From contig CAZIVL010000001.1 of assembly GCA_964543035.1 (NCBI GenBank), positions 303,736-367,735 on the forward strand: a stretch of 64,000 bases of DNA, given 5' to 3'. Source of the DNA: an uncultured Gammaproteobacteria bacterium. GTDB taxonomy: Bacteria; Patescibacteriota; Microgenomatia; CAZETR01; Amesbacteraceae. The translations under genes and the position numbers were made by a program. Positions 2,108 to 64,000 of the stretch are shown one piece after another. Within the stretch, counting starts at the first letter, position 1. Every line of letters begins with the position of its first letter. Under the pieces are notes generated by a model. It was not told where the DNA came from. It made no database searches and worked only from the letters and a program-made list of their open reading frames with translations.

Positions 2108-2974
2108 ATGTGCCAAGTCTGTAACAACAAAGCACCGTTTATAGATCAAGTGCCGTATTCTCACAAATATCGGTATCTAGTGTGTGGGTCTTGCACTGCA
2201 GGCATCTTACAGCCCCAGCCATCTGAGCCAGAATTAAAAAAGTTGTATGCAAAAAATAGTTATTTTGTTAAATTGTCTCAGCCTGTAAAAGCATCATGGT
2301 GGAAGCCATTTTTTGATTTCAGAATTTTTCCACTTCCTGACCAATTTGTGTCACAACAGTTGTCACCTAGAAGTATTTTAGATGTTGGGTGTGGAAATGG
2401 GGAGTTTTTGGATAATCTTTCAAAGTTGGGCTGGAAGACCTATGGCAGCGACATTAGTCAGGTTGCAAAAGCAAATACCGAAATGAAAATTGGAAAAAAT
2501 CGTGTCTTTAGAGGCGAATTCTCATCTCAAAAGATAGCAAAAAAGTTTGATGTAATCACTTTTTGGCATGTGTTAGAGCATTTGGCATCACCAATCAAAT
2601 ATCTAAAGGCAGCTTACAGAAATTTAAACAAGGGTGGCATGGTTATGGGAGAAGTACCTAGCTTTGATTCGCGGGTATTAAAAATATTCAGACAAAACTA
2701 TTCATGGATGATGGTGCCTGAGCATCGAATTTATTTATCCACAAGCTCCCTGAGAAACATTTTGAAGCAATCAGGATTTAGCAACATAGTCATCAAATCT
2801 CCACCTAGAGGTCTGTTAAATTTTTCACTCAGCTATTCTAAGACTCTTGAGAAATCCCCTTATAGATTAATTCTTTTTGCACTTTCAATCCCTTTTTCAG
2901 TAGCCTTAGGGTTATTTTTTAGCAAATTAGGGCAAGGAGAAGTTTTAAGATTTTCAGCAGAAAAAGATGTTTAG
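2108..2974 (+). CDS. Class I SAM-dependent methyltransferase with N-terminal Cys4 zinc-ribbon
   Basis: CxxC...CGSC N-terminus; motif I LDVGCGNGEF; motif post-I/II typical of Methyltransf_11/23. Confidence 0.75.
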   Translation: MCQVCNNKAPFIDQVPYSHKYRYLVCGSCTAGILQPQPSEPELKKLYAKNSYFVKLSQPVKASWWKPFFDFRIFPLPDQFVSQQLSPRSILDVGCGNGEFLDNLSKLGWKTYGSDISQVAKANTEMKIGKNRVFRGEFSSQKIAKKFDVITFWHVLEHLASPIKYLKAAYRNLNKGGMVMGEVPSFDSRVLKIFRQNYSWMMVPEHRIYLSTSSLRNILKQSGFSNIVIKSPPRGLLNFSLSYSKTLEKSPYRLILFALSIPFSVALGLFFSKLGQGEVLRFSAEKDV

Positions 2975-5900: not shown

Positions 5901-6260
5901 AGTAAGCCGCCAACAGATGGTCAAAAAACAGAAATTAAATGGTCAAAGACAAACCCCACTCAATATCTGGTAAAAATGAAGAAAACTGATTCACAGCCAG
6001 AAGTACTTGTCTTTTCAGAGTTATTCAATTCAGGTTGGGAGATCAAGACAATTCTCGGACCAGCCATCCCTCAAAAAAATCACATACTGGCAAACATTTA
6101 TGCCAACGGTTGGCTGATAACCGAACCTGGTGATTATGAGCTGAACCTCAGCTTTGGACCTCAAAAAGGATTAGAATCAGGCAGAATTGTTACTCAAGCG
6201 TCTATCGGGCTGTTAGTTACCTTGTTGTTATGGCACATTTTAAAAAATCATCTTTTGTAA
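2967..6260 (+). CDS. Large polytopic membrane protein with ~700-aa extracytoplasmic C-terminal domain (GT-C-like; paralog of 7644-10256)
   Basis: About 12 predicted TM helices in the first ~400 aa; conserved block GTNPPLGEIF...FRNPFEKFGF shared with the 870-aa paralog; final C-terminal TM helix. Confidence 0.8.
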   Translation: MFRLLLIILPVLLAGMWFKEGFVMGGGEGGLPFHDLVRSANLTKWSWADAALGNGLGIGTASYPFYWFLAQLQILGVSPVIIQASVYAFLFILGGFGIYYLVQESFPNINSRYAFLSSLAYWFNPLSMINTWNRNLSNYMVFYGFYPFITWIFIRGLAKRNIYFVMLSGLLTGVFSYSLTATPFNLLMLGTWGYVSLWYFFIVWKGNQKWFALQYLILTIICYIGVNFWWLGQLFSFLGSSYYASAVSDFFTTGGNYGTLVSLSELLGRLFNITRLYHGSFYYTAPIYFRIFLSPLLYFPNYIFVGLIIWVISKRLSDKQILLWGSIFLGTIFLIKGTNPPLGEIFGLLFQNLSVLQVFRNPFEKFGFLLSMGFSVLLGVAVSHLEKNKNVIFTFCLLFVGIVWGYPYWSSIVFTRTTTNLQEPVSLEVEVPNAYKEINSWLSSQPFEHRAVVLPINGEGMTYTWDKPYAGVELSSTLFDRPVVSFNTTIPLLYDYVNQIHKYQISSDILKLFPFLNAKYLIWRSDIDFKDRRTADPEVIHKLLNEWEDQGLVTSESSAEFLKVYSVNDNYVWPKIYSTKKIVYSNSRDPVSLSRVYPSLTEDPSAIVSSSGDYYHILEPLAVYPSKFTETPVTLTQDDLLARLFHATHLPGDKYYFLSRLKERLQLLTDSNYESRHIFEIGILGKRAVEIYKLHKSGADPKIISKSETEYVNELFRKKSQFTNILSAQSQISSLLRDSLLYQSLLLETTGCSCTEKIATLMFELNIKPRFTLPQTAPDKFLVYYFEVPLAGEYTISSSQVQSEATWYIDGEPLSSSNTKIRLQPGIHEVAILNLAYSKPVSVINETFEIDTTNNKEINIDLPDLAGEYVVKFDFLFSEGNNFDISFIQDIDQKGSPTHIAAVQKNSRFHGWGSWQTFFTTSNGASTLKMTTQPVSGSKCKSQWLLFTSCSKKEDTYKVQIKNLSWSRLERPSVFLTLSKPPTDGQKTEIKWSKTNPTQYLVKMKKTDSQPEVLVFSELFNSGWEIKTILGPAIPQKNHILANIYANGWLITEPGDYELNLSFGPQKGLESGRIVTQASIGLLVTLLLWHILKNHLL

Positions 6261-7643: not shown

Positions 7644-10256
7644 ATGTCAAAAATTAATCTTCTATACATACTTACGGCTCTAATCATTTTTAATGGCTTT
7701 ATCAGTTTGGATCCGCGCTTTGCCAACGATTTGCCCTCTTCCTCGCTATCTTCTCTGCGAGAAGGGCTAAATCTTCCTCAAACATGGAACGACAGGGGAG
7801 GTCTTGGATTGGGCGCCTATTCTATTTCAACTCTTTGGGGATGGCCCCAAGACTTACTTTATTCGGTTGGTAGTACGCTTGGTCTGGATTTTGGGATACT
7901 ACAAAGAGTAATAGGTATTTTTATGCCCATCACTTTAGGGTGGTGGGGGGTATACAAGTTGTCTGGTCACAAGGCATCTTCTCTATTTTATGTAACCACA
8001 TCGTATTTCTTGTTGTTAATCGATGGGGGACAGCTAGGTTTGGCAATGGCGTATGGCATTCTTCCTATATGTTTTTTTACATATTTACAGGCAGTGTCAG
8101 ATTTCACAAAAAAAAATGTCCTCAACTTTGTTTTCTGGTCGATCGCCCTCTCGGTATCAGATATTAGGATTATTTACATGCTTTTGCTTCTTATTGTTGT
8201 AGATTTTATTCTGTCTCCTTCATCTTTTTACCGTCGTTTTGTAATAGGGTTATCTAGCTTGATATTTATGATCGGTTTTCATAGTTACTGGTTACTGCCG
8301 GCTATCATGACTCGACTACCCACACTGCCCACTGGATACAGCGAAACGGGTCAAATAAGTTTTTTGAGTTTTGCAACCCTTGGCCACTCTCTTTTTCTTC
8401 AACAGCCACACTGGTATAAAAATGTATTCGGAGATGTTTCTTCCATTTCTGTCTTTTTTTTGATTATTCCAGTTCTGGTCTTTTTTGCCCGAGTAGTTAA
8501 CAGAAGTGATAGAAAGATCAGATTTTGGCTTGTAATTGCTCTGGTCGGTACATTTTTGGTGAAAGGAAGCAATCCTCCTCTGGCTGACTTTTATTCATGG
8601 GTTTTCAACGCTGTTCCTGGATTTCAAATTTTTCGGGATCCGGTAAAGTTTATGTTTATTACCTCAATGGCGTATGCAGTTCTTGTGGGTAGTACAGTAT
8701 CAGTTCTGGTCAAAAAGTTTAAGTGGTTTTCTTACGTTTTCCCGGCAATCTGTCTCTTGATTACTTTTCCAGTTTGGTCTGGACAGATGACAGGCCTGTT
8801 TGTTCCGCCTAGGAACATAGCTAACTACTCGGCCATGTCCAAATATTTTTTTGAAAAACCAGAATTTGGTAGGATAGCTTGGATCCCCGCAAGACCCCCT
8901 CTTAGTTACAACAGCTCCCAACACACGGTTCTTGAGGGGACATTCTTATCTACACTTCGGCCTTTCTACATTGAATCTGTAGGTACATATGACACCATGA
9001 ATTTTCTTCGCGAGTCTAGTCATTTAGATAGGTTTTTTGAAATATACGGGATCAAATATCTCGTTTTTCCACCAGCAGACGAAAAACGGATAAAGTTAAA
9101 ACCAGAAGACGCAAGTTATCAAGATGTCTTTTATCGCCAGCTTTCAAAAAAAACATGGGTATCCTCCACTCAGTCTTTTGGAGATGTACGTCTTATCACA
9201 ACCACAGCAACACCAAAATTGATGTATCTTGCCTCTCCTCCAAAATTTATAGTGGGATCTGACAGCTATTACAAAAACATCCAAGACATAAAAACATCCC
9301 CTCTTGTTTTTTCAGAGGAGCATCCTGGAACAATGGACAGTATTGACCACTTCCCAAATAGCGGTGTGGAAGTATATCAAAAGAAAAATTTGGATCTTAT
9401 AGCAAGTTTTGCTCCCAAAGATAATCTTATTTTTCCATCTTACTCACTTGCAAACAGTCCAGATTCGTCTGGTTGGTGGAAAAGAGACCCTGGCAGTTTT
9501 AAAGAAGCACGAAATTTTCTTGAAGAGAAATATGCGTTAACTATTGACGATTTTGATCTTGGTGGAGGCTATGCATTTTCTGAAGGATCGAATACTCTTT
9601 CAATAGAATCAAGTCTTATTCAGGAAGGATCCCGCCTTTTTGTCAGGGCGATCACAAGCAGTCGTTCTGGAAGTATCCAATTCCTCCAAAGCGGCAAGCC
9701 AGTAGGAGACATCATGACCGGTGTAGCAGGAGAGCAGGTCAAAAGAAAAATTACAGGGCTAGACGAAATTCCCGACCAGGTTCTAGATTACTCCAAAGCC
9801 GACTTGTCTTGGCACGAAGTGGGGGATTTGCAATCGAAAGACGCATTGAAAATCACGACCCAAGGGGACATAAACGTTATAAACGCTATTCTTATCCTTC
9901 CAAAACCCACATGGCAAGCCCTTGAGGACAAGGCGTCAAGCGTCACTACGACCCAAATCCAAGTAGCCACCCCTTCTGCCGCTCTAAGTTATGTGCGCAT
10001 CTCCCCTACACATTACAAAGTTACAGTATTTGGCCTGACTTCACCCAGCATGTTGGTTTTTTCGCAGATGTACGACGACCTCTGGCGACTATCCGGACAG
10101 TCACCACTTCGTGTGTACAGCCATCTAAACGGTTATAATATAACTTCGGACGGAGTATACGACCTAAAGTTTCGGCCCCAAGAGTTCGTAATTCCAGGTC
10201 TCTTAATAACTATGCTCACATCACTTATATTTACAACGTTATGGAAGTCGCAATAA
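7644..10256 (+). CDS. Large polytopic membrane protein with extracytoplasmic C-terminal domain (GT-C-like; paralog of 2967-6260)
   Basis: Multi-TM N-terminal half, GSNPPLADFY...FRDPVKFMFI block homologous to the 1097-aa protein, C-terminal TM anchor. Confidence 0.8.
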   Translation: MSKINLLYILTALIIFNGFISLDPRFANDLPSSSLSSLREGLNLPQTWNDRGGLGLGAYSISTLWGWPQDLLYSVGSTLGLDFGILQRVIGIFMPITLGWWGVYKLSGHKASSLFYVTTSYFLLLIDGGQLGLAMAYGILPICFFTYLQAVSDFTKKNVLNFVFWSIALSVSDIRIIYMLLLLIVVDFILSPSSFYRRFVIGLSSLIFMIGFHSYWLLPAIMTRLPTLPTGYSETGQISFLSFATLGHSLFLQQPHWYKNVFGDVSSISVFFLIIPVLVFFARVVNRSDRKIRFWLVIALVGTFLVKGSNPPLADFYSWVFNAVPGFQIFRDPVKFMFITSMAYAVLVGSTVSVLVKKFKWFSYVFPAICLLITFPVWSGQMTGLFVPPRNIANYSAMSKYFFEKPEFGRIAWIPARPPLSYNSSQHTVLEGTFLSTLRPFYIESVGTYDTMNFLRESSHLDRFFEIYGIKYLVFPPADEKRIKLKPEDASYQDVFYRQLSKKTWVSSTQSFGDVRLITTTATPKLMYLASPPKFIVGSDSYYKNIQDIKTSPLVFSEEHPGTMDSIDHFPNSGVEVYQKKNLDLIASFAPKDNLIFPSYSLANSPDSSGWWKRDPGSFKEARNFLEEKYALTIDDFDLGGGYAFSEGSNTLSIESSLIQEGSRLFVRAITSSRSGSIQFLQSGKPVGDIMTGVAGEQVKRKITGLDEIPDQVLDYSKADLSWHEVGDLQSKDALKITTQGDINVINAILILPKPTWQALEDKASSVTTTQIQVATPSAALSYVRISPTHYKVTVFGLTSPSMLVFSQMYDDLWRLSGQSPLRVYSHLNGYNITSDGVYDLKFRPQEFVIPGLLITMLTSLIFTTLWKSQ

Positions 10257-11530
10257 TAGGCGCTGGTTTTACGGGTCTTGCTGCGGCCTACTCTCTTTCA
10301 AAAATGGGGGTCAAGGTCACCGTATTTGAAAAAGAAAAAAATCCTGGTGGATTGGCAGTTGGCTTTAAGGATCCTAAGTGGGAGTGGACCATAGAGCAGC
10401 ATTATCATCACTGGTTTGTATCTGATCTGGCTATCCAAAAGCTTGCAGCAGAAATTGGTCATCAGGTAACTTTTGTCAGACCAAAGACATCCACATGGTT
10501 TGCGGGTCAAATTGCTCAGCTTGACTCTCCGATTAGCCTTTTGACTTTCAAAGCACTTCCTCTTATCGACAGGTTAAGGACATGCATTGGACTTGCTGCC
10601 ATGAGATTTAACCCCTTTTGGAAAATGTTTGAGTTTGCAACAGCCGAAAGATACATAAAGACCATTATGGGTCAAGCTTCGTGGGACGTGCTCTGGGGGC
10701 CATTGTTTGTTGGCAAATTCTCGTTTCATTACCCCAGGATTTCAGCAACTTGGTTCTGGGCTCGGATTTTCAAGCGTAGCTCATCTTTGGGTTATCCCAA
10801 AGGTGGGTTTCAGGCTTTGGCCGAGGCAGTAGAAAAGGCGGCGATAGACAATGGTGCCAAATTTGTTTACGATTGTGAAGTAGAAAACTTAAGCTCAGAC
10901 AAATCCGGAAAAGTAACTATATCTACAAAGACACAGACACTAACTTTTGATAAAGCGATCTTCACTCTTCCAACGTTTCTATTCCTAAAGATTGCTTCTT
11001 CACTTCCTGATGATTACAAAAAAAAGTATCAGAGTTTGTCAGGAATTGGGGCAGTAAATTTAGTAATAGCTCTAAAGAAACAGTTTTTAACCGACGGGAC
11101 TTATTGGCTGAATATCAATGATCGAAGTATGCCCTATCTGGCCATAGTAGAACACACTAATTTTATGTCCCCCAAGGGGTATGGGGAGGACCATCTCCTC
11201 TATGTTGGCAACTATTTGGCACCAGACCACGAATATTTCAAAAAAACCAGCAATGAATTAGTAAATGAGTTTTTGCCTCACTTAAAAAAAATTAACCCCA
11301 ATTTTGAAAAATCATGGATTAGGAAGGCCTGGGTATTTAAGGCTCCGTTTGCCCAGCCAATAGTTACCTCAAATTATTCCAAAAGCATTCCTCCCTTGAC
11401 CACCCCATTAAAAAATGTGTACTTAGCCAACATTCAACAGGTTTATCCATATGACCGTGGGACAACTTATGCCGTAGAATTAGGTGAGAAGGCTGCCCTG
11501 CTATGTACAACAAAATCAAATCACTCTTAG
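10241..11530 (+). CDS. FAD-dependent oxidoreductase, amine-oxidase/UDP-galactopyranose-mutase-like
   Basis: N-terminal Rossmann dinucleotide motif VAIIGAGFTGLAAA...VFEKEKNPGG; H-rich segment QHYHHWF and C-terminal YPYDRGTTYA resemble Glf; product assignment tentative. Confidence 0.6.
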   Translation: MEVAIIGAGFTGLAAAYSLSKMGVKVTVFEKEKNPGGLAVGFKDPKWEWTIEQHYHHWFVSDLAIQKLAAEIGHQVTFVRPKTSTWFAGQIAQLDSPISLLTFKALPLIDRLRTCIGLAAMRFNPFWKMFEFATAERYIKTIMGQASWDVLWGPLFVGKFSFHYPRISATWFWARIFKRSSSLGYPKGGFQALAEAVEKAAIDNGAKFVYDCEVENLSSDKSGKVTISTKTQTLTFDKAIFTLPTFLFLKIASSLPDDYKKKYQSLSGIGAVNLVIALKKQFLTDGTYWLNINDRSMPYLAIVEHTNFMSPKGYGEDHLLYVGNYLAPDHEYFKKTSNELVNEFLPHLKKINPNFEKSWIRKAWVFKAPFAQPIVTSNYSKSIPPLTTPLKNVYLANIQQVYPYDRGTTYAVELGEKAALLCTTKSNHS

Positions 11531-12756
11531 AGACTAGCACTGTTCGACAGTCATCAATAACCACAATCTCGACCTTTGCTTCAGCAGCTCTCGGGGCTGT
11601 ATTTTACTTGATACTGGCCAGGCTCCTGGGAACTTCAGATTACGGACTATTCTCTCTCAGTCTGTCCATATTGGTCACCTCGGTAACGATTGCCGATGTG
11701 GGAATGGGTCAGGGGATCATTAGATTTATTGGCGAAAACCGAGATTCAGACAAATATCTTGGATATGCCAATTTTGCACTCAAGACGAAGCTCTTTCTTG
11801 CACTTGTCTGTTGGTTGGGTCTAACACTCTTTGCCTCTCCGATAGCGAGTTTGATTAGTCAGCCCAGTCTCGTTGACACCCTTCCAGTAGTGGGTTTCGG
11901 CACTTTTGCGTTTATCATGGCCTCTTACTCGTTCTCCATGTTGCAATCCTTACAGAAATTTTCTATTTGGGGGGGGCTTCAGGTAGGTTCAAACTTGATT
12001 CGGTTGTTCATACTCTGGACTATGTCTTTTCTAGTCCCCGTCGATACCCACTTGGCCATTTTAGTCTTCGGTTTCACTTCTCTTTTTAGCTTTTTGCTAT
12101 CTTGGTTTTGGCTAGACAAAAAAATCTGGATAGCCAGATCAAATACGACACATGCATTACATTTTTGGAATTTCAACAAATGGACTGCATCATTTAGTAT
12201 GTTGTCGTCAGTGGTATCACGCCTAGATATATTTCTTGCCAGTCGGTATCTTGATCTGTCTACCATAGGCTCATATTCATTGGCAGTTACTATGGTTTCG
12301 TTCATGCCGCAATTATCGGTGGCGATTGGTGCAGTCACTTCAGCAAAGCTTGCAAATAAGTCTGATCCGCGCGATGCAAAGAGATATCTTCGAAAGTCTA
12401 CTATTTTTTTGACACTGGTCAGTATTGGAGTTGCACTGCTTATGATACCCACAGCCCTTGTTGTGGTCCGGTTTGCAGGAACAGGATATTCAGCAGCGCT
12501 TCCACCATTTTTCGTGCTTCTTGTGTCCCAAATCATCTTCATGATGGGCAACCCCTTAAGAGACTATATCCTCTACTTCCTCAAAACTCCCAGAGTCTTT
12601 TTTTGGACTGCCATTGTTCAAGGTATTGTAGTGGTGGTTTCGGGCGTATTGCTAATCCCCAAGTTTGGTAACGTAGGGACAGCCCTTTCGGTTTTTGCCA
12701 GTCTACTAGCTCTAACTGGGTCATGTCTCTACTTTTTCTATCGTAAAAGCAAATGA
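11503..12756 (+). CDS. Oligosaccharide flippase (Wzx/MOP superfamily polysaccharide biosynthesis protein)
   Basis: 417 aa, ~12 TM helices, typical Wzx topology; located in the glycan locus. Confidence 0.7.
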   Translation: MYNKIKSLLETSTVRQSSITTISTFASAALGAVFYLILARLLGTSDYGLFSLSLSILVTSVTIADVGMGQGIIRFIGENRDSDKYLGYANFALKTKLFLALVCWLGLTLFASPIASLISQPSLVDTLPVVGFGTFAFIMASYSFSMLQSLQKFSIWGGLQVGSNLIRLFILWTMSFLVPVDTHLAILVFGFTSLFSFLLSWFWLDKKIWIARSNTTHALHFWNFNKWTASFSMLSSVVSRLDIFLASRYLDLSTIGSYSLAVTMVSFMPQLSVAIGAVTSAKLANKSDPRDAKRYLRKSTIFLTLVSIGVALLMIPTALVVVRFAGTGYSAALPPFFVLLVSQIIFMMGNPLRDYILYFLKTPRVFFWTAIVQGIVVVVSGVLLIPKFGNVGTALSVFASLLALTGSCLYFFYRKSK

Positions 12757-15471: not shown

Positions 15472-16170
15472 GTGAGCGTGACCGATCCAATAGGAGAACA
15501 GACTTTGTCAGTCATGTCTCAAGCAAGCCACTACAATTACTGGCTATTTTCTCAGGTCAGACCATTTTTATCTTCTCCCCTAGTAGAAGTCGGCGCAGGT
15601 ATTGGAAACTTTTTACCATTATTTACTGCATCGGGTCTACAGACAACCGCAGTAGATTACAACTCTGAATATTTGGCCAAAATAAAAAAAGAGTACGATG
15701 TCGACACTTGTCAGTTCGACCTCCAAAAAGTCTCAGTACCTCAAGTTCTTTACCAAAAGTTTAATTCGGCAGTTAGTCTAAATGTCTTGGAGCACATCCC
15801 AAATATTTCCCAAGCCATGAAAAATATTTATTCTATGCTCAAACCAGGTGGTACTGCAGTAATACTGGTCCCCAGTTTCAATCTTGCTTACAATAAGTTT
15901 GACAAGGGTCTGGGACATGTAAAGCGGTATTCAATACCCGAAATAAATAATCTGGCAAAAAAAGCGGGCTTTACTATCCAAAAATCATACTATATAAATC
16001 CGTTGGGCTTATTGGGATGGATTGTTTTTGGACTTGTGTCACCCAAAGACACATTTTCTGAAAACCCGGTCAAAATATTTGATTACATCTCCAGACCATT
16101 TTTATTTCTTGAAAGATTTATTCACCCCCCCGTTGGTATATCTCTCATCACTGTACTGAAAAAACTATGA
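15472..16170 (+). CDS. Class I SAM-dependent methyltransferase
   Basis: VEVGAGIGNF motif I, LKPGG motif; GTG start in track, alternative ATG at 15514. Confidence 0.7.
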   Translation: MSVTDPIGEQTLSVMSQASHYNYWLFSQVRPFLSSPLVEVGAGIGNFLPLFTASGLQTTAVDYNSEYLAKIKKEYDVDTCQFDLQKVSVPQVLYQKFNSAVSLNVLEHIPNISQAMKNIYSMLKPGGTAVILVPSFNLAYNKFDKGLGHVKRYSIPEINNLAKKAGFTIQKSYYINPLGLLGWIVFGLVSPKDTFSENPVKIFDYISRPFLFLERFIHPPVGISLITVLKKL

Positions 16171-16871: not shown

Positions 16872-17749
16872 AAAAAATCGCCATCTTGTCATATTTTTCC
16901 GGAAAGATGAACAGGGGAGTGGAGTCGTGGGCCGAAAGTGTAAAATCTCATGTGACGAGTTTTCAGTTTGACATCATTAGTGGAAATTTTGCTTACAATC
17001 CTTTCACTTGGTTTGGATATGACCTCATTATTTCTACGAATGGCCGCCTGCAAGTTTTCTTGTGTAGGTTGTTTACCTGGATAACGAAGAAAAAAATGGT
17101 TGTTTTTGGCCACTCAGGTCCAGGGGCAGACGACAAATGGAATTTGCTGTGTTCTCCAGACGTCTTTGTAAGCTTCACAAACGCACAATCGCAATGGGTA
17201 AATAGGTTCAAATATCCATGGACAAAATCAATTGTTATTTCTCACGCCGTTGATACAAAAGTCTTCACTCCAGGGAAAAAACCCAAGAATCCAACCATTC
17301 TTTGTGTTGCGGCAAACACTGCTTCAAAAAGGACTCACCTAATCAAGTCCGCCCATGACAGGCTTCCCGAAACAGATCTTTTACTAGTCGGTCCCGGCCA
17401 ACCCGAAGAATTCACTTTTGACCAAATGCCAGATGTCTACAAAAAGGCATCCTTATTTTGTTTTGTTCCAAAACCCCACGAAGCTTTCGGACTGGTTCTA
17501 CTAGAGGCTCTTTCTTCCAATTTGCCTGTGGTGACAATTGATGACGAGGTAAGAAGAGAGATCGTGGGCGAGGCTGGGTTGTATATTTCAGACCCAGAGA
17601 ATATTGAGGAGTTATCTCTCATAATTTCCAAGGCTATAGAAACAGAGTGGACCAATCGTCCGCGCAAACAGGCGGAAAAATTTTCCTGGGATGTTATTTC
17701 CAAAAGATATCACGATCTATGCAGAGAGCTTTGCTTATCTTTGTCATAA
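16868..17749 (+). CDS. Glycosyltransferase family 4 (GT-B)
   Basis: C-terminal EAFGLVLLEALSSNLPVV motif typical of GT4. Confidence 0.75.
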   Translation: MKKIAILSYFSGKMNRGVESWAESVKSHVTSFQFDIISGNFAYNPFTWFGYDLIISTNGRLQVFLCRLFTWITKKKMVVFGHSGPGADDKWNLLCSPDVFVSFTNAQSQWVNRFKYPWTKSIVISHAVDTKVFTPGKKPKNPTILCVAANTASKRTHLIKSAHDRLPETDLLLVGPGQPEEFTFDQMPDVYKKASLFCFVPKPHEAFGLVLLEALSSNLPVVTIDDEVRREIVGEAGLYISDPENIEELSLIISKAIETEWTNRPRKQAEKFSWDVISKRYHDLCRELCLSLS

Positions 17750-19005
17750 TTTCTCTTATTCCACTTTTCAAGCCAGGACTTTACACTAGCCACGATGGTG
17801 AAAATCATTTGGTCAGATTGGCCTACTTTCACAAATACTTATCAGAAGGTTATATCGTCCCAAAATGGATTTCTGAGTTAAATTCAGGCTTGGGATATCC
17901 AATATTTTATTTCATCAATCCTCTTCCATATTACTTGGGCAGTCTTCCCAAACTAGTTAGTTTTTCGACTATAGATTCACTAAAAATTGTCCTTTTTGTA
18001 TCTACGATTATTGGAGCTTTTGGTGTGTATTATTGGGTACTTGGACTCGTAAAGCATCGAAGTTTGGCATTCTTGGCAGCAGTAATTTATGTATTCACTC
18101 CCTACCGATTCGTCGATGTATTCGTCCGCCTTGCCTTATCTGAGATTGTTTTTCTAGCGGTGATTCCCTGGGCATTTTACAGAGCTACCCCGTACACCCT
18201 AAGTCTACTCATCCTATCTCATACCCAGCTTACTGTCCTATTTTTCCCCCTTCTATTTATTTACTCATATCTCAATCAGAGTGTATCTAGTTTTCTAAAA
18301 CATACTTTACTGGCACTAGGACTTACAGCCTTTTTCTGGCTGCCTTCGGTAGTTCTTATTTCTTACACCAAATTTGATTCACTAGTTCAGTTTCCACCCG
18401 CAAGCCACATGCCCACGCTTCGCCAACTCATCTACTCGCCTTGGGGATTCGGGTTTTCCCATCCAGGGCCAGCAGACGAAATGTCATTTCAGGTAGGTGT
18501 TGCAAACTGGCTATCTTTATTTTTGGGGTCAGTTATTGTTTTTGTAAAAAAGGACAAAATTCTGGGATTTTTTGTGTTGATTACCTGGATCACAATAATT
18601 TTTATGTTTACCAATTTTTTTGGTGTTTGGGATACCAGTTTCACACACTTTATCCAATTTCCTTGGCGTCTTTTAGCCATTCCTTTGATACTTACGCCTG
18701 TCATCGTGTCGCTCGCTCTTAGTTACTTGTCCTCGCGTAACATCGCCCTTGTTACAGTGTTTTTGATATTGGTGGCAATATATACAAATAGAAATCACAT
18801 TACGACAAACATGCCTCAATTTCTGTTAGTTCAGGACAAATATTTTTTCCAGGCCCACAAGACTACCACTGCCACTCCAGATGAACTCATGCCAAAGGGT
18901 ATATTTCCACAGAGTCACCCGGTTATAGCAATCTCCTACGGTATATCAAGCTTCAGTGTAGTATTAATGTTACTTATACATTTATGGAAAAAGAAAAACC
19001 AATAA
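17719..19005 (+). CDS. Polytopic membrane protein, GT-C-like (YfhO/mannosyltransferase-like first-loop motif)
   Basis: About 11 TM helices; first extracytoplasmic loop SHDGENHLVRL resembles the D..H..R loop of GT-C enzymes; start moved to the internal Met to limit overlap. Confidence 0.7.
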   Translation: MQRALLIFVIISLIPLFKPGLYTSHDGENHLVRLAYFHKYLSEGYIVPKWISELNSGLGYPIFYFINPLPYYLGSLPKLVSFSTIDSLKIVLFVSTIIGAFGVYYWVLGLVKHRSLAFLAAVIYVFTPYRFVDVFVRLALSEIVFLAVIPWAFYRATPYTLSLLILSHTQLTVLFFPLLFIYSYLNQSVSSFLKHTLLALGLTAFFWLPSVVLISYTKFDSLVQFPPASHMPTLRQLIYSPWGFGFSHPGPADEMSFQVGVANWLSLFLGSVIVFVKKDKILGFFVLITWITIIFMFTNFFGVWDTSFTHFIQFPWRLLAIPLILTPVIVSLALSYLSSRNIALVTVFLILVAIYTNRNHITTNMPQFLLVQDKYFFQAHKTTTATPDELMPKGIFPQSHPVIAISYGISSFSVVLMLLIHLWKKKNQ

Positions 19006-19766
19006 TTTCAGGAGTCGTAGTCACAAAAAACTGCTGCAAAGAGTTGCCAGACTGTTTGGCTAGCTTGCAAGGATTGGTCGACGAAATTGTGGTGGTGGAT
19101 CTGGGATCTTCAGACGATACTATCAGTGTGGCCAATCATTTTAAGGCCAGGGTACTCACTCATGAGCCAGTGCATTACGTCGAATTGATTCGTCAATACG
19201 CTATTTCACAAGCACGAGGTGAATGGGTAATGGTAATGGACCCCGATGAGCGTGTATCCCCCTCTCTGGCAAATAGGCTAAAGGACCTGATTCCCCAAAG
19301 TAAAATAGTTGCAGCAAACATTTCACGGAAAAATATCTTTTTTTCTCGCTGGGTAAGGCATACCAATTTTTGGCCGGACAGACAAATACGTTTTTTTAGA
19401 AAATCGTGTGTTAGTTGGAACACTCAAATTCATAGTTATCCTGAGGTCAAGGGTGAGATTCTAGATTTGCCTGCAACTGAAGACTTAGCCCTTATCCATT
19501 ATGGGTACGAAAGTTATGATGAGTTTTATGCTCGTCAAAATCGTTATTCCAGCGTAGAAGCAGAAAATCTAATTAAAAAAAGGGAGTCATTCAGTTATCT
19601 AAAACTATTTTGGAAACCCATGAGAGAAGTACTAGTACGTCTTATCAAACACGCGGGATTTTTGGATGGCTTCTTGGGTCTATCCTTAGTTTACTCACTA
19701 GCTATCTATCAATTATCGGTGCAAATAAAATTATGGGAAAAAACTCAAAAATTACACTTATCATAG
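18984..19766 (+). CDS. Glycosyltransferase family 2
   Basis: GVVVTKNCCKEL...VVDLGSSDDT, MDPDERV. Confidence 0.75.
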   Translation: MEKEKPIISGVVVTKNCCKELPDCLASLQGLVDEIVVVDLGSSDDTISVANHFKARVLTHEPVHYVELIRQYAISQARGEWVMVMDPDERVSPSLANRLKDLIPQSKIVAANISRKNIFFSRWVRHTNFWPDRQIRFFRKSCVSWNTQIHSYPEVKGEILDLPATEDLALIHYGYESYDEFYARQNRYSSVEAENLIKKRESFSYLKLFWKPMREVLVRLIKHAGFLDGFLGLSLVYSLAIYQLSVQIKLWEKTQKLHLS

Positions 19767-21091
19767 TTCTTTCTCTGGCAGTCTTGTTGAGACTGTTCAA
19801 CCTGGATCAAAGTTTTTGGTTGGACGAAGCTTCGCAAGCTCAGATGTCATCACTTTCACCTCGGGCAATATGGTTTGACAGGGGGGGGGACTTTCACCCT
19901 CCTTTATTTTATCTTCTTGCCCACTTCTGGCTCTTGTTCGGAAAATCTGAAGTCTGGTTGAGACTGCTCCCGGTATCTTTTGGTGTGATAAATGTTTACA
20001 TAATATATTTACTGGCAAAAAAAGTAATTCCCGGGCAACAGATTCTAGCGAGTTTCCTCCTGGCCATCGCCCCATTTCATATCTACTACTCTCAAGAGTT
20101 TAGGTCTTACTCACTCCTATGTTTACTAGGGACGCTATCTATGTACTTTCTATTTCAAAAAAAATATATGTCACTTATGATAGTCAACTCACTCCTTTTT
20201 TACACCCACTACTCATCTATCTTTTTACTACTTACCCAGCTGTTTCTTGTGCCAAAAGCAGATTATAAAAAATACTTGATACATAATACATTATACTTTT
20301 TGCTGATCATTCCCTGGCTACCTCAATTTGTTCATCAACTAAATTCCGGTGTAAACATCGACAATTATTTGCCAGGCTGGCGAAATGTACTAAGCCTTCC
20401 TGTACTCAAGGCCTTTCCAGTCACAGTCTTCAAGTTAGTTGCAGGTAGAATAAATTTCTTATCTAGATATCTTTACGGCATGTACATTGTCTTTGTATTT
20501 GCTGTCACTTTTTCAGCTTTCTTTGTAGCCCGAGCCCAAAAGCGTTTTCTTTTCATTTGGGCATTGGTACCTGTATTTATAATGATGCTGGTCTCGTTTG
20601 CCATACCCCAGAGTCAGCCATTTAGAGTAATTTTTGTATTACCAGCTTTTATACTGCTTATGACTCAAGCAGGCAGCAAGTTTCCCAAGCTTTTTCTGAC
20701 ATTTTTTATATACATAGCCCTTACCGGAAATATAACCTATTACACCCGGCCTCGGATTCAAAGAGAAGACTGGAGAGGCGCGATCTCCTTTCTTGCTACA
20801 AAAAATATGCCCATAGTCATCAAGTTCTCTGGCAATTTTGCCCCCATCACCTGGTACAATCCCAGTCTTCCCGTAATAGCAGCAGTTCCTCATTATCCAG
20901 CTAGTTCCCAGGACGTAACATCTAAGCTTATTCCCTTGTCTACCCAAAAATCAGTCTTACTGGTAGATTACTTGGGAGAACTTACTGATCCCAACAGAGT
21001 CACCGACCAGATTTTGGGTGAGATGGGCTTTGTAGCGGGTCGGGTCCACGACTTTTCGGGGGTTGGTTTTATTCGTGAGTATCACCGATGA
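19733..21091 (+). CDS. GT-C glycosyltransferase, ArnT/PMT (GT39/GT83)-like
   Basis: TM1 followed by the RLFNLDQSFWLDEA loop motif typical of PMT_2/ArnT family; about 11 TM helices; contains a G9 homopolymer. Confidence 0.8.
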   Translation: MGKNSKITLIIVLSLAVLLRLFNLDQSFWLDEASQAQMSSLSPRAIWFDRGGDFHPPLFYLLAHFWLLFGKSEVWLRLLPVSFGVINVYIIYLLAKKVIPGQQILASFLLAIAPFHIYYSQEFRSYSLLCLLGTLSMYFLFQKKYMSLMIVNSLLFYTHYSSIFLLLTQLFLVPKADYKKYLIHNTLYFLLIIPWLPQFVHQLNSGVNIDNYLPGWRNVLSLPVLKAFPVTVFKLVAGRINFLSRYLYGMYIVFVFAVTFSAFFVARAQKRFLFIWALVPVFIMMLVSFAIPQSQPFRVIFVLPAFILLMTQAGSKFPKLFLTFFIYIALTGNITYYTRPRIQREDWRGAISFLATKNMPIVIKFSGNFAPITWYNPSLPVIAAVPHYPASSQDVTSKLIPLSTQKSVLLVDYLGELTDPNRVTDQILGEMGFVAGRVHDFSGVGFIREYHR

Positions 21092-22359
21092 TTGTCCTAA
21101 TTTTTCAACTAATTCATTCATTGATTCTCTGGAAATTAGAATTCTTTTTATATCCTGAACTGTTGATATATCCTTACCTTACTACTCAAAAACTTCTTCC
21201 CTATTCTCAGATTCTAGACCAGCATTTTCCAGGACTCATGTTTTTTCCAATCAATTTTTTCTCATTGGGATTTACAGATCCAACGAGTTTCAAATCCCTT
21301 TTGGTCTTAATTGTTATTTTTCAGTCTGTCTTCATATACAGACTAACAAAATCCAAGTCAGCGGTATTGTTGTTTACTATACTGCACCCATTGTTTGAGG
21401 GAAATCAGCTCTGGCTAGATTCATTTTTGCCGTTACTCCTTCTGCCTGCATATTGGAGCTTTACGAGCAAAAGATTTTTTATGACAGGGTTGTTATTGGG
21501 ATTAGGAGTAGTCTTTAAACAGACGTTGGTTCCGGCAGTCGTCTTCATTGGCTTAATTTTGCTTTTTAAAAAACAATTCAAAGATCTCGTAGTTTTTTCG
21601 CTTTCGGCCCTTTTTCCGTCTGTCTTAATGCTGATGTACATGGGAAAAATAGGTATTCTTTCAGACTTTTGGTATTGGACCGTTCAGTTTAACCTCACCA
21701 CATTTGCCGCTCATGGGCGAAATTTGCCGACTCCCAAAGAGGTTATCAAAGTTTCTTTTGTGGGAGTCATTGCTATCTATTGTTTTGTTCGGTATCCAAA
21801 AAGCCGTCACGGCCTTTTATTGGGATTGATGGCTAGTCTTGAGACATTTTCTCGTTTTGGGCTTATTCATCTGCAGACCTTCATACCTTTTCTGGCAATC
21901 GCAGTTTCTTACATAAAATCACTCAAAAAATTATTTTTAATATTTTTTATTTCTATTGCATGGCTAATTTATTTTTTGCTCAGACAGCAAAACATCGGAG
22001 GATACAAATTTTTTGATCCAGATACATTAACTATCATAAGTAAGGTTCAGGAAAACACCGACCCGGGAGACACCATCTTTTTATTAGGTGTCCAGCCGCA
22101 TATATACGAGCAAACAAAGACCCTCCCCCCAGGAAATGTTTTTGTTTTTCAGTTTCCCTGGTTTTTACAAATATCTGGAGACCGTATTCTTCAGACTCTC
22201 AAAGACGATCCTCCCAAGCTGATTCTTTACAACCCAGAAAGTGAGATCGACGAGCAATATCTGCGCGATTATGCCCACTACTTGGTAGAATATACAGTGA
22301 GTAACTACCGGCTCGTGGATGAAGTGGGAGTGACTCAGATTTATGCGCGTCGCAATTGA
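21088..22359 (+). CDS. Polytopic membrane protein (probable additional membrane glycosyltransferase)
   Basis: 423 aa, about 10 TM helices, soluble C-terminal domain. Confidence 0.65.
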   Translation: MIVLIFQLIHSLILWKLEFFLYPELLIYPYLTTQKLLPYSQILDQHFPGLMFFPINFFSLGFTDPTSFKSLLVLIVIFQSVFIYRLTKSKSAVLLFTILHPLFEGNQLWLDSFLPLLLLPAYWSFTSKRFFMTGLLLGLGVVFKQTLVPAVVFIGLILLFKKQFKDLVVFSLSALFPSVLMLMYMGKIGILSDFWYWTVQFNLTTFAAHGRNLPTPKEVIKVSFVGVIAIYCFVRYPKSRHGLLLGLMASLETFSRFGLIHLQTFIPFLAIAVSYIKSLKKLFLIFFISIAWLIYFLLRQQNIGGYKFFDPDTLTIISKVQENTDPGDTIFLLGVQPHIYEQTKTLPPGNVFVFQFPWFLQISGDRILQTLKDDPPKLILYNPESEIDEQYLRDYAHYLVEYTVSNYRLVDEVGVTQIYARRN

Positions 22360-23377
22360 CATTTCGTCGGTCATCTTTAGGACTGGTGTATCCAGATATA
22401 CCCAAGAATTGGTTCGTCATCTGCCGAATGATTTGCTGCTTCCGTTTGGATTTTCTATGAGAAGAGGAGGGGAGTTTCCTGCAGGCACCAAAGTCTTCCC
22501 CCTCCCCCCGACTGCCATGCACTATTTATGGAACAAATACCACACCCTAAGTGTAGAATCTTTGGTGGGGGACATGGATGTCTATCACTCGTCAGATTGG
22601 GCCCAGGGGCCGAGTCGGGCCAAAAAAGTCACTACTATCCATGATCTGTCCCCATTTTTATTTCCCGAGGAGACTGATTCTCAGATTTTGGCTGTTCATA
22701 CTGCTCGTATGAAGTGGGTTATCAAGGAATGCGATGCCGTTATCTGCGTATCGCAAAATACCGCCTCAGATCTACAAAAATTATTCAATTATCCTTCATC
22801 AAAAATCCACATCATCCCCGAAGCTCTACCCACACCACACCAATTATCTCCTGATACATCATACGTTATACCAGATACATCATACTTGTTAGCCATCGGC
22901 GCCCGCCAGCCCCGAAAAAACATCAAGCGCCTTATCTCAGCTTATTTAGCACATCGGTCCAAGTACTTTCTCCCCGAAAAACTCATCATTATCGGGGAAA
23001 TACCTGATACAACATACAAAATACATGATACGGTCCAGTTTACTGGTCCCGTCTCAGACCAAGATCTGGCAGGCTACATGCGAGGCGCCGAGGCTTTTGT
23101 CTATCCCTCTCTCTACGAAGGCTTTGGGCTACCCATTCTTGAAGCTTTTCACCACCAAGTTCCTGTGGCCGCTTCAAATACCTCGTCAATCCCAGAAGTA
23201 GCAGGCAGCGCTGCAGTACTTTTCGATCCCCTTGATGAGGAATCGATAGCCAAAGGCGTGGCTGACGCCATAAAAAATAAAAAGAAATTAATTTCAGCCG
23301 GCACAAAGCAGTTATCCCATTTCAGCTGGACCAAGACAGCAGAAAAGACTTTGGAGGTGTATAAAAGCTTATGCTAA
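22343..23377 (+). CDS. Glycosyltransferase family 4
   Basis: EGFGLPILEAFHHQVPV motif; 344 aa; contains tandem 21-nt duplication. Confidence 0.8.
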   Translation: MRVAIDISSVIFRTGVSRYTQELVRHLPNDLLLPFGFSMRRGGEFPAGTKVFPLPPTAMHYLWNKYHTLSVESLVGDMDVYHSSDWAQGPSRAKKVTTIHDLSPFLFPEETDSQILAVHTARMKWVIKECDAVICVSQNTASDLQKLFNYPSSKIHIIPEALPTPHQLSPDTSYVIPDTSYLLAIGARQPRKNIKRLISAYLAHRSKYFLPEKLIIIGEIPDTTYKIHDTVQFTGPVSDQDLAGYMRGAEAFVYPSLYEGFGLPILEAFHHQVPVAASNTSSIPEVAGSAAVLFDPLDEESIAKGVADAIKNKKKLISAGTKQLSHFSWTKTAEKTLEVYKSLC

Positions 23378-24489
23378 TAGGAATTGATGCCAATGAGGCA
23401 AATTTGACCCAAAACCGGGTGGGTATCAACCAGTATGCTTTTGAGCTGTTGCATGCCCTCTACAATCTCGACACCCCACACATATTTGTCATATATCTTA
23501 AATCCAAGCCCCAGCCAGATCTGCCGGTCGCCCGAAAAAACTGGCATTATAGGGTCATTCCTTTTCCCAAGCTCTGGACCCAGACCAGGCTGCCTGTGGA
23601 TCTCTTTACTCACGCTCCCAGCCCTACGGTTTTCTTTAGCATGACCCACTACGCCCCCCGCTGGTCACCCGTTCCCACGGTCGTGGCCATCATGGATCTG
23701 GGTTTTTTGAGCTCTCCCGAGCAGTTTACTCCCCGCGATTTTAATCAGCTCAAATCTTGGACACACTATTCAGTAAAAAATGCCAAAAAAATTATTGCCA
23801 TCTCCCAATTTACCAAGGAAGCCATCCAAAAAGAATACAAGCGCGCAGAGGGGGACATCATAGTTACCCACCTGAGTTACAACTCTTCGTTATTTAAGCC
23901 CACTCATAATTCCCAGATTCTCGAAAAATACGGCATCACAAAACCTTATATTTTGTTTCTTAGTAGCCTCAAACCCAGCAAAAATATAGAGCGACTCATT
24001 GAAGCCTACAAAATACTAAATACTAAATACAAAATACAAGATACAAAGTTAGTCATCTCAGGCAAAAAGGCCTGGCTGTTTGACCAAATATTCGCCAAAG
24101 TAAAGAGTCTGGGTATAGAAGACAGGGTTATTTTTACGGGTTTTGTAGAAGAAAGCGAAAAACCAGTTCTTATGACAGAGGCCTCGGCTTTTGTCCTGCC
24201 GTCCCTATACGAGGGATTTGGTATCCCGGTTCTCGAGGCCATGGCTTGTGGGACTCCGGTCGTAATATCCAAGATAGCCAGTCTTCCGGAAGTAGCAGGT
24301 TCAGCTGGCATTTTTGTAGACCCCCTTGATGTAAACAGTATTGCAGACGGCCTACAAATAGCCCTTGGCCCCAGATCACAAGAATTTGTGAAAAAGGGAC
24401 TAAAAAGGGTACAATCATTTAGCTGGGATAGGTGTGCAAAGGAGACTCTAACTGTCATTCTGAGCGCAGCGAAGAATCCAGTAGTATGA
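23371..24489 (+). CDS. Glycosyltransferase family 4
   Basis: [18 protein letters not shown] motif; 372 aa; last 11 codons are formed by the recurring motif copy A. Confidence 0.8.
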
Positions 24490-25621: not shown

Positions 25622-26885
25622 CATCTGGATTTTACTTCTGCTTCTAATATTTATCCCCATATATCCAAAGTTTCCTTTGGTGGGTATTGCTGGTAGTTTT
25701 GTGGCCATTAGGCTCGAAGACTTTTTGGTGTTGATTGCTCTTGGACTTTGGGGACTCCAAAACATAACCAGGATTAGGAAGATCTTTGAAAACCCTCTTC
25801 ACAGATCCGTCGCCTTGTATTTGCTCATAGGATTTTTTGCCCTATTCTCGGGCATTTTTTTGACCAAACTTGTGGATATAAAAGTGGGACTTCTTCATGC
25901 ATTTAGGAGAGTCGAGTACATGGCATTGTTTTTTATCGCATACGATTTTTTCAAAACGAAAGCCCACTTACCAATTTTTGTTCGGACCATTCTTGTGGTA
26001 TCTGCCATCATCGCTTTCTATGGCCTGGGTCAGGTTTATTTTGATTTCCCTGTAATTTCTACTTCAAATAGTGAGTTTTCTAAGGGTCTGGCTCTTACGC
26101 TTGGAGCTGGCGCACGTATAAACTCTACTTTTGCTGGCCATTATGATCTGGCAGCATTCTCAGTCTTCCCCCTGCTTTTGATTACAGGACTTCTAGCAAT
26201 TGATGCCAAACCCAAGTGGGCTCTTATTTTGGTAGGAGCGGCCTCCCATTGGACTCTTTTGCTATCTGCATCCAGGGTCTCGTTTGCAAGTTTTGTGATT
26301 TGTGCCGGAATTTTGCTTTTAGCCCTAAGAAAATTTTCTTGGATTCCTTTGCTTGTTATTCTTTCTATAATCAGCGTGGTGTTGTCACCTCAACTGCGCG
26401 GTAGATATTTGGAATTTATTACCCAGGTCCACGCTCAAGAAGAGTCAAAAAGCGTAGAATCCGTCCCAGACGCTCTTAAGCCCACAGCCAAGCCCGAAGA
26501 CAGATCATTCAACATTAGACTCAATGTCGAATGGCCCAGAGCCATCAGAGCCTGGCAAAAAAATCCGATCTTTGGCACCGGCTTCTCTTCAGTTGGTCTT
26601 GCAACAGACAACGAGTACTTGCGCACTCTTGCCGAGACGGGCACATTAGGATTGTTGGCGTTTTTACTTATTTTTATACGTTTTTTCAAAACTTCAGTTT
26701 CTTATTTTATAAAATATAGTCCCACGCTTGAGCATGTATTTATTCTTAGCATGGTGTGTGGCATACTCAGCCTAATGCTAAACGCTGTATTTATAGATGT
26801 CTTTGCAGCATCAAAGATAGCCTTATTTGCCTGGCTCGTAATAGGTGTTACAGAAAAAGTAAAACAAGAAAGTACAAAATCATGA
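25602..26885 (+). CDS. O-antigen ligase / Wzy-like polymerase family membrane protein
   Basis: 427 aa, about 10 TM with a large loop near the C-terminus (typical Wzy_C arrangement). Confidence 0.65.
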   Translation: MNMQKFNIWILLLLLIFIPIYPKFPLVGIAGSFVAIRLEDFLVLIALGLWGLQNITRIRKIFENPLHRSVALYLLIGFFALFSGIFLTKLVDIKVGLLHAFRRVEYMALFFIAYDFFKTKAHLPIFVRTILVVSAIIAFYGLGQVYFDFPVISTSNSEFSKGLALTLGAGARINSTFAGHYDLAAFSVFPLLLITGLLAIDAKPKWALILVGAASHWTLLLSASRVSFASFVICAGILLLALRKFSWIPLLVILSIISVVLSPQLRGRYLEFITQVHAQEESKSVESVPDALKPTAKPEDRSFNIRLNVEWPRAIRAWQKNPIFGTGFSSVGLATDNEYLRTLAETGTLGLLAFLLIFIRFFKTSVSYFIKYSPTLEHVFILSMVCGILSLMLNAVFIDVFAASKIALFAWLVIGVTEKVKQESTKS

Positions 26886-28258
26886 AAATAAAGCAGCCTC
26901 ACCATCTAATTCTGATTATTTTTTTGATTTTGGGTTTTTTGGTTCGTCTGTACAAGATAGATAACCCGATAGCCGACTGGCATTCCTGGCGCCAGGCAGA
27001 CACATCGGCCGTGACTCGAAATTTCGTCAAATATGGAGTCAATGTCCTATACCCCAGGTACGATGATTTTACCGATGTCTCAGGGAAAGGGCTTTTCAAT
27101 CCCAAAGGATACAGATATGTAGAGTTTCCGATTTTCAATCTCGTTCATTATTTAGTATTCATGATTCTTTCGCCGGTCCAAGTTACACTTGAGGCGGCCG
27201 GACGTCTTACTTCAGTTCTTGCATCTTTAGTTTCGGCCACACTTCTATATTTGATCGTGAGCAGGCGCACAAACAAGACGACTGGACTTATGTCATCATT
27301 TTTCTATCTGTTTTTGCCTTACAACATATTTTTCACCAGAGTCGTTCTTCCCGATCCGCTCATGGTTACATTGTTTTTGGCGGCCCTCTACTTTAACGAC
27401 CTAAAAAAACACACCCTCACTCTAGTGTTTGGATCACTGGCTATATTAGTAAAGCCAATTGCCATCTTCTTCTTGCTACCTATATATATCTCAAATTTTT
27501 GGCTAGGTCTTGTTATGTTGGTTCCGTTTGGGCTATGGCGGGTGTGGTCATATCGCCACCCTGAGGGGATACCGGCAAGTCTTTGGCTCCTAAATGGCAA
27601 TCATATTCGATTCAAGGGCGCGTTTTTCCAATGGATTTTTGGGGTCAGAATTGGCAGTCTGATTTTGGGCAAGTGGGGAATTTGGCCATTTTTATCAGGA
27701 CTGATTGCTGCTTCTCCTGGCTTTATCCTCTGGATAATCTCCTCCATGCTTTATCTCTTCACCTTTGCCATGGGCAATGTCCATCACGACTATTACCAGA
27801 TTCCCATCATTCCTTCCCTTGCGGTACTTCTGGCCATAGGGGCTTATCACATTTGGCACACTAGCCCTCGCACCATCCTATCTCGGATTTTGTTAGTAGC
27901 CTGTGTTCTCTTCATGCTTGCTTTTTCTTGGTATGACATTCGAGGACTTTATCAGGTCAACAATTGGTCAATCGTTCATGCGGGTCAGGCCGCAGACAAA
28001 CTGTTACCAAAAGATGCCATCGTCATCGCCCCCTACATGGGAGACACAGCCTTTTTATATCAGACAAATCGCGCTGGGTTCCCATACCTGTACATGCCCG
28101 AAAAAGATCTCAAAGATCTCTACAACGCCCAGTACTACATCTCAGTAAATTACGATGATGATACCAATAGAATTATAAATAAATACATTACCCTCGAACG
28201 CACTCCCGAATATGTCATAGTCAAGCTCGAAGAACCCATAAGAGACCCTGTCAAATGA
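26882..28258 (+). CDS. GT-C glycosyltransferase, ArnT/PMT-like
   Basis: TM1 LILIIFLILGFLVRLYKIDNP then W..RQAD loop; multi-TM; start at the internal ATG giving ATGA overlap with the upstream stop. Confidence 0.75.
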   Translation: MKIKQPHHLILIIFLILGFLVRLYKIDNPIADWHSWRQADTSAVTRNFVKYGVNVLYPRYDDFTDVSGKGLFNPKGYRYVEFPIFNLVHYLVFMILSPVQVTLEAAGRLTSVLASLVSATLLYLIVSRRTNKTTGLMSSFFYLFLPYNIFFTRVVLPDPLMVTLFLAALYFNDLKKHTLTLVFGSLAILVKPIAIFFLLPIYISNFWLGLVMLVPFGLWRVWSYRHPEGIPASLWLLNGNHIRFKGAFFQWIFGVRIGSLILGKWGIWPFLSGLIAASPGFILWIISSMLYLFTFAMGNVHHDYYQIPIIPSLAVLLAIGAYHIWHTSPRTILSRILLVACVLFMLAFSWYDIRGLYQVNNWSIVHAGQAADKLLPKDAIVIAPYMGDTAFLYQTNRAGFPYLYMPEKDLKDLYNAQYYISVNYDDDTNRIINKYITLERTPEYVIVKLEEPIRDPVK

Positions 28259-63659: not shown

Positions 63660-64000
63660 AACAACTCCCCGACTCAGTTCTGACGTATTTACTCTCCTTT
63701 TCCTGGGCCGTTCCTTCAGACATAATTCTCAGATCGTGTGAAGCCATAGTCTGGTCGACTCACAGATTTGTCGGACCTGTTTTGGATATTGGCTGTGGAG
63801 AGGGCAATATTGGAGAGGTAGTTTTTTGGAATCAGGGTCAGATAGACATAGGTATGGATTTGGATCCAGAGGGGATCCAAAGGGCTACCGGCAGTTCCAA
63901 GTACAAAAAATTGATAGTAGGGGATGCCAGAAAGATCCCCCTGCCTTCATCTTCGGTAAAAACAGTTGTCAGCAACAGCACTTTCGAACACATAGAGGAG
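63656..64000 (+). CDS. Class I SAM-dependent methyltransferase (5' partial, runs off window)
   Basis: ATG 63656, VLDIGCGEGNIG motif I; no stop within window. Confidence 0.55.
   Translation, partial: MKQLPDSVLTYLLSFSWAVPSDIILRSCEAIVWSTHRFVGPVLDIGCGEGNIGEVVFWNQGQIDIGMDLDPEGIQRATGSSKYKKLIVGDARKIPLPSSSVKTVVSNSTFEHIEE

Follow-up and report, generated by a model that had tools for sequence, protein, structure and literature searches.

Among described systems, the closest to the locus reported here are the poly-G/C contingency loci of Campylobacter, Neisseria, and Haemophilus, exemplified by gonococcal pgtA. As at our locus, an uninterrupted G run lies within the open reading frame (ORF) of a glycan glycosyltransferase, and gain or loss of a single base leaves a truncated null product. 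In the gonococcus, a phase-variable poly-G allele of pgtA occurs alongside an interrupted constitutive allele, GGGAGCGGGG (PMC2193922), which has two bases different and one G missing (PMC2193922). A threshold of at least 7 for an uninterrupted G/C run is given in the same source (PMC2193922). Our locus also resembles pgtA in having related alleles whose run is interrupted and differs by one or two bases. However, it departs from these systems in several respects. Tract length at contingency loci varies among isolates (9 to 20 G in pgtA), whereas we found only a run of nine G (G9) in three assemblies. Genomes with contingency loci carry many tracts and their switching has been measured, whereas here there was no excess over null expectations, the relatives were tract-free, and the tract encodes a conserved motif. 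In addition, the enzymes encoded at contingency loci are mostly soluble GT-A or GT-B proteins, and ours is a GT-C membrane enzyme.

The second class of sequence to which the locus can be compared is the incidental coding homopolymer, such as Gly-Gly written as GGG GGG, Pro-Pro as CCC CCC, or Lys-Lys as AAA AAA. Run counts here match a synonymous shuffle and we found no difference from this class; the G9 finding is an ordinary one. In the full-text literature that we searched, there was no report of homopolymer phase variation in glycan genes of the Candidate Phyla Radiation (CPR), and nothing on mismatch-repair status specific to Amesbacteria. Closest to it came a Gracilibacterium gene with a hypervariable 9-mer repeat (PMC6851277). 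Frequent, reversible switching at contingency loci is often aided by weak or missing mismatch repair. MutS and MutL are reported to be absent in Saccharibacteria and present in Gracilibacteria and Absconditabacteria (PMC8406219). Neither mutS nor mutL was found in the 64-kb stretch of DNA analyzed here, to which we refer as the window.

The gene that holds the run, its motifs, and its upstream neighbor are placed as follows.

19733-21091, + strand: GT-C-fold membrane glycosyltransferase, ArnT/PMT-like, 452 aa from its ATG, predicted from an AlphaFold2 (AF2) model, Foldseek, and homologs
19823-19828, + strand: GAC GAA, the acidic pair D31-E32 in the first extracytoplasmic loop, candidate catalytic motif
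19877-19903, + strand: codons D49-R50-G51-G52-D53-F54-H55-P56-P57, part of the loop motif W-x-x-R-x-[G/A]-D-F-H-P-P, from the homolog alignment and AF2 model
19881-19889, + strand: G9 homopolymer, read directly, the same in loci L001, L167, and L168
18984-19766, + strand: GT2 glycosyltransferase directly upstream (Pfam Glycos_transf_2, 2e-15), overlapping the start of the GT-C gene by 34 nt

On its predicted structure, the product of gene 19733-21091 is a GT-C-fold enzyme, with a polytopic N-terminal region and a small C-terminal alpha/beta domain. The AF2 model, built from a 40-sequence alignment, scored a pLDDT of 91.1 and a pTM of 0.90. Its best Foldseek match in the PDB was ArnT (5f15, E 1.3e-6, TM 0.62), and every PDB match at E ≤ 1e-3 was a GT-C enzyme: ArnT, the AglB/PglB/STT3 oligosaccharyltransferases, ALG9/ALG12, Pmt4, and the mycobacterial arabinosyltransferases AftD/AftA. 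These results support an earlier sequence-only reading of this DNA, which had called the gene ArnT/PMT-like. The protein thus shares its polytopic GT-C fold with the lipid-phosphate-sugar-dependent transferases ArnT (GT83) and PMT/PMT_2 (GT39). It also shares with them an acidic pair in the first extracytoplasmic loop. In the 40 homologs this pair, D31 and E32, never varies; it lies within W-L-D-E-A directly past the first transmembrane helix (TM1), and by analogy with published GT-C enzymes the two are candidate catalytic residues. Unlike these families, it is distant in sequence. Identity to ArnT is only ~11%, the Pfam PMT_2 profile (PF13231) scored 24.5 bits, below its gathering cut-off of 26.1, and a profile search with the 40 sequences gave no match among PDB sequences, so that structure prediction was needed to assign the fold. 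Precomputed PF13231 matches are nevertheless carried by many of the homologs. Such homologs abound in Candidatus Amesbacteria and other Microgenomates, where source labels include glycosyl transferase family 39, mannosyltransferase, and uncharacterized membrane protein. Many of the homolog-bearing GTDB contigs (L003, L011, L013, L016, L017, and others) are titled “uncultured Gammaproteobacteria bacterium” or “Pseudomonadales,” and a few Clostridia or Bathyarchaeia; such titles probably reflect placeholder or mistaken taxonomy in the deposited MAGs.

The gene order GT2 then GT-C is kept in the related loci L002 and L083. The overlap of the two genes and the recurrence of their order suggest a pair of donor synthase and transferase, and the arrangement recalls, by analogy, the ArnC-ArnT, GtrB-GtrC, and Dpm1-Pmt pairs. 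The GT2 protein may synthesize a lipid-linked sugar donor for the GT-C enzyme, and the fold together with the adjacent GT2 gene suggests that this donor would be polyprenyl-phosphate-linked and used on the extracytoplasmic face. The longer order of GT2, GT-C, a 423-aa membrane protein, and GT4 is also kept in L002 and L083.

Around the GT-C gene extends a glycan cluster of ~36 kb, with GT2, GT4, methyltransferase, Wzx, Wzy, Bac_transf, ManC, and more polytopic proteins, after which come cell-division and housekeeping genes. Its GT4 genes include the following.

23371-24489: GT4 gene, 372 aa
28255-29454: GT4 gene, 399 aa, whose protein look-up led to the contig of sequencing run SRR16481186

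Three polytopic membrane proteins flank the GT-C gene (17719-19005, 21088-22359, and 26756-28258), two lacking a Pfam match and one matching PMT_2 weakly; they may be additional GT-C-like enzymes. Two large ORFs of the cluster, 2967-6260 (1097 aa) and 7644-10256 (870 aa), had no Pfam match at E ≤ 0.01. A second glycan cluster runs from 59850 to the window end at 64000 and continues for ~7 kb in the SRR16481186 contig (L164 11563-21221). It contains a methyltransferase, GT4, GT2, a second Wzx, more methyltransferases and glycosyltransferases, and Wzy.

Within the GT-C gene, the G9 run reads GAC AGG GGG GGG GAC, or D49-R50-G51-G52-D53, inside FDRGGDF. It comprises the last two bases of AGG (R50), the whole of GGG (G51) and GGG (G52), and the first base of GAC (D53), so that it lies at codons 50-53 of 452, or 11% of the ORF. 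Both the coordinates and the frame given by the sequence-only reading were borne out. So was its placement in the first extracytoplasmic loop, as the tract falls in the first loop past TM1, ~20 residues beyond the invariant D31-E32. The AF2 model shows residues 49-56 as a loop of the first extracytoplasmic region, between the short helices 43-48 and 57-67. That reading had further proposed that a change of one G would truncate the enzyme, and in silico translation agrees: loss of one G (G8) would give a product of 75 aa and gain of one (G10) a product of 72 aa. The G7 and G11 alleles would give 71 aa and 76 aa. After a slip, in-frame restart codons occur only from codon 68, past both TM1 and the D-E motif.

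This is the classical anatomy of a contingency locus. Such loci carry an uninterrupted G/C run of ~7-8 or more in an ORF or promoter, as G9 is, and a change of one unit switches the frame and abolishes the product, as predicted here in silico. Physically, the tract is slippage-prone like any G9. One explanation is therefore that G9 was recently gained and serves as a useful slipped-strand switch, with the GT-C enzyme on at G9 and off at G8 or G10, varying a surface glycan with a benefit such as evasion of phage or host recognition. A frameshift at codons 50-53 of 452 would indeed leave a clean null of 72-75 aa, and the gene belongs to a large surface-glycan cluster and encodes an enzyme that looks non-essential. 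Against this, the residues that the tract encodes are part of a conserved motif and not of a free linker, and the evidence below on abundance, relatives, and length variation weighs further on the proposal.

A different concern is whether G9 is real. Several sequencing platforms are error-prone at homopolymers and relatives carry G4-A-G4 at the same site, such that an interrupted run or one of another length (e.g., G4AG4, G8, or G10) could have been miscalled as G9. However, the Logan assembly of run SRR16481187 (L001, L167) was 100% identical to the window over 14,750 bp, including G9, and a 92.6-kb contig in the Logan assembly of SRR16481186 (L168, L164) had zero mismatches over 21,200 and 11,562 bp, although these assemblies may share source reads with the window. 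G9 is common to the window and both Logan assemblies, making three assemblies and two sequencing runs, and the exact GT-C protein is encoded in the assemblies of both runs. The other two long G/C runs of the window, a G8 and a C7 described below, are likewise present in L001. Moreover, a run of nine leaves the reading frame intact, and homologs align all along the 400 aa downstream of it. Base-for-base agreement of two Logan assemblies over 14.7 and 21.2 kb (G9, G8, and C7 included), the kept frame, and the downstream homology together make an assembler artefact unlikely, and we regard a miscalled site as very improbable.

The sequence-only reading had put the chance expectation of such a run at ~0.1 per window and called it improbable. 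That figure is correct for independent bases only, and it is too low because it ignores neighbor and codon structure; nulls that take this structure into account gave 0.40-0.48. Dinucleotide-preserving shuffles yielded 0.48 G9/C9 runs per window, with at least one run in 29 of 100 shuffles. We also shuffled synonymous codons among 53 coding sequences of the window, preserving protein sequences and codon usage, and expected 0.40 runs of at least 9 against the 1 observed (P(≥1) = 0.35). For runs of at least 8, this shuffle gave 1.11 against 2 observed (P = 0.31), and for runs of at least 7, 3.4 against 3. Similarly, GGG-GGG encodes 2 of the 88 Gly-Gly dipeptides in the window, where ~1.6 would be expected neutrally from 14% GGG usage. 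The occurrence of a G9 in the window is no more than chance would give.

The same held when genes were divided by function. Glycan genes of the window (39 kb) held 3 runs of at least 7 with 2.25 expected, and housekeeping genes (22 kb) held 0 with 1.22 expected; neither difference is significant. Among 1.42 Mb of related loci, there were 29 G/C runs of 7, nine of 8, and zero of 9 or more. With no run of at least 9 across that sample, G9 is empirically rare in the clade, which could be taken to favor a switch at this site. Yet when codons were shuffled in an Amesbacteria-type sample (282 ORFs, 279 kb, 20 loci), runs of at least 7 numbered 15 against 22 expected, runs of at least 8 numbered 7 against 7.1, and runs of at least 9 numbered 0 against 2.4. 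Rather than exceeding neutral expectation, long G/C runs in the clade equal it or fall slightly short of it. The enrichment of long tracts in glycan genes, for which the sequence-only reading had proposed a test, was not seen, with no excess over the nulls in the window or in the 279 kb of relatives. Contingency loci are marked by an excess of long tracts concentrated in surface and glycan genes, and none was seen in the 64 kb of this genome or in its relatives.

Only three G/C runs of at least 7 occur in the 64-kb window, and all three lie within glycan genes, which is another point in favor of a switch. Besides G9, these are the two companions that the sequence-only reading had listed, both of which are present.

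11969-11976, + strand: G8 run, TGG GGG GGG, encoding W-G-G, codons 156-158 of the Wzx flippase gene (11503-12756)
16125-16131, + strand: C7 run, CAC CCC CCC, encoding H-P-P, codons 218-220 of 232 in a methyltransferase gene (15472-16170)

In each of the three runs, a doubled GGG or CCC codon is lengthened by a neighboring codon (R-G-G-D, W-G-G, and H-P-P). The companion C7 counts against the contingency explanation. It is placed 93% of the way along its gene, where slippage would change no more than the final ~13 residues and the run would make an ineffective switch. At the Wzx W-G-G site, a G8 recurs in the distant relative L009 (4098-5378, codon 161) and a G7 in the distant L035. We considered the G8 recurrence in L009 as a sign of selection for the tract and dropped it, given the mixed Gly codons in the closest Wzx relatives, where the longest run is G4, and the small sample. 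From the codons, these Wzx runs read as recurrent chance at a predisposed motif.

Homopolymers of A were also present. On the + strand of the window, which is mostly coding, there were 57 A runs of at least 7 and 19 T runs, a strong asymmetry. Examples of long A runs are the following.

1347-1355: A9 run in a GT2 gene
8108-8116: A9 run in the 870-aa ORF (7644-10256)
40176-40183: A8 run in MraW
41157-41164: A8 run in an FtsI-type PBP
43206-43213: A8 run in MraY
52631-52638: A8 run in an IleRS-like gene
20157-20164: A8 run in the GT-C gene itself

The A8 runs in MraW, the FtsI-type PBP, MraY, and the IleRS-like gene indicate that long homopolymers are tolerated where switching the gene off would be harmful.

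To place G9 among its relatives, we collected the loop-motif DNA of 165 related loci, drawn from GTDB genomes, metagenomes, and Logan contigs; these comprised 37 distinct sequences. At the protein level, the motif W-x-x-R-x-[G/A]-D-F-H-P-P is conserved across the 40 aligned homologs. R50, F54, P56, and P57 are invariant, D53 and H55 occur in 39 of 40, G52 in 23 of 40, and G51 in 12 of 40. At the DNA level, the longest G run at the motif was only 1-5 in the 36 other distinct homolog sequences, with the window alone exceeding G5. A tract at the orthologous site in relatives is a further mark of contingency loci, and none of these 36 sequences has one. Still, the coexistence of interrupted and poly-G alleles of pgtA within one species (PMC2193922) means that absence of the tract in relatives is compatible with a recent functional gain.

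The relatives also point to how the run may have arisen. The closest, L002 (84% aa identity), has CGG GGA GGG GAT, an interrupted run. The first Gly codon is GGA in 6 of the 8 distinct R-G-G alleles (6 of 7 if the window is excluded), giving G4-A-G4 after AGG or CGG. With GGA in most of these alleles, one synonymous A-to-G change would turn G4-A-G4 into G9; we infer the direction of this change from the distribution of alleles rather than from a rooted tree.

One homolog of the family is frameshifted. In P0102, a 52%-identical homolog (L083 2826-4203, with the same sequence in L094), a frameshift lies between the D-E and R-x-G-D motifs, at ...GCT CAA GCC|ATC TTT CC..., with the N-terminal 36 residues in one frame and the remainder in another. 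The called protein starts at M62 and is without the catalytic loop. It occurs on 5 contigs; two loci of assembly JADMIO01, L083 and L094, were those in which the frameshift itself was read. The shift looks like a one-base loss in a short C run, and it suggests a natural loss-of-function allele of the enzyme family. We considered P0102 as a frameshift at the G9-equivalent tract and rejected this, as the shift falls ~12 codons upstream, at GCC|ATC, where there is no long run. That a relative is naturally frameshifted within this loop region does suggest that the gene is dispensable, a point in favor of a switch.

Contingency loci are also marked by tract lengths that are polymorphic within populations or among isolates. 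None of the nine predicted products of G6, G7, G8, G10, G11, and G12 alleles was present in a collection of 15 billion proteins, and the cluster of the exact GT-C protein had one member. No near-identical truncated protein appeared in the homology search, in which the next hit after the identical protein was the 84% relative. A DNA pattern of the conserved flanks with a free gap of 6-14 nt gave 0 matches in JGI metagenomes. Tract length was G9 in all three assemblies (two runs, one strain in public data), at consensus level, where minority lengths are invisible. The constancy of G9 across these assemblies and the lack of any variant-allele product in public data argue against the contingency explanation, as do the tract-free orthologous site in 36 other distinct sequences and the lack of excess over composition-aware or codon-aware nulls. 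We therefore consider a recently gained, useful contingency tract unlikely, although it keeps a real minority share of our confidence. More doubtful again is the stronger claim of a working slipped-strand switch that toggles a GT-C surface glycosyltransferase in this CPR (Amesbacteria) bacterium. That G9 is maintained or used as a switch is unsupported, as nothing we tested indicates so, and we infer no adaptive switching role for it.

The G-rich stretch could instead act at another level, through transcriptional slippage, as an internal Shine-Dalgarno-like pause site, or as a DNA structure. The purine-rich stretch AGGGGGGGGG might bear a weak resemblance to a ribosome-binding sequence. However, the gene is already in frame and has no need of corrective slippage, a single G run is incapable of forming an intramolecular quadruplex, and relatives without the run give no sign of a conserved role. 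We give such an action the slightest chance of any explanation considered here.

The reading that we prefer, and hold to be probable, is that G9 is a genuine but incidental homopolymer arising from the codons used for a conserved R-G-G-D loop motif. Under this reading, the enzyme would require an R-x-[G/A]-D loop motif shortly after its putative catalytic D-E pair, which takes the form R-G-G-D in this lineage. Given an AGG codon for Arg and the initial G of the Asp codon, the length of the run would be set only by the wobble bases of the two Gly codons. Most R-G-G relatives have GGA GGG where this genome has GGG GGG, and a synonymous A-to-G transition would have fused two G4 blocks into G9. 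Once formed, the tract would be expected to slip at a raised rate, giving occasional null alleles of 71-76 aa that lack all but the first transmembrane helix.

The locus offers a worked example in which a striking G/C run in a glycan gene is fully explicable by a conserved Gly-Gly motif and codon choice, and in which expectations from independent bases understate such runs by ~four- to five-fold. If a switch were nonetheless true, this would be a contingency tract born from one synonymous substitution in a conserved motif. And if reads did reveal length heterogeneity, the locus would offer a cheap way into the study of stochastic surface-glycan variation in ultrasmall episymbiotic bacteria, in which the literature searched gave us no instance of such a mechanism.
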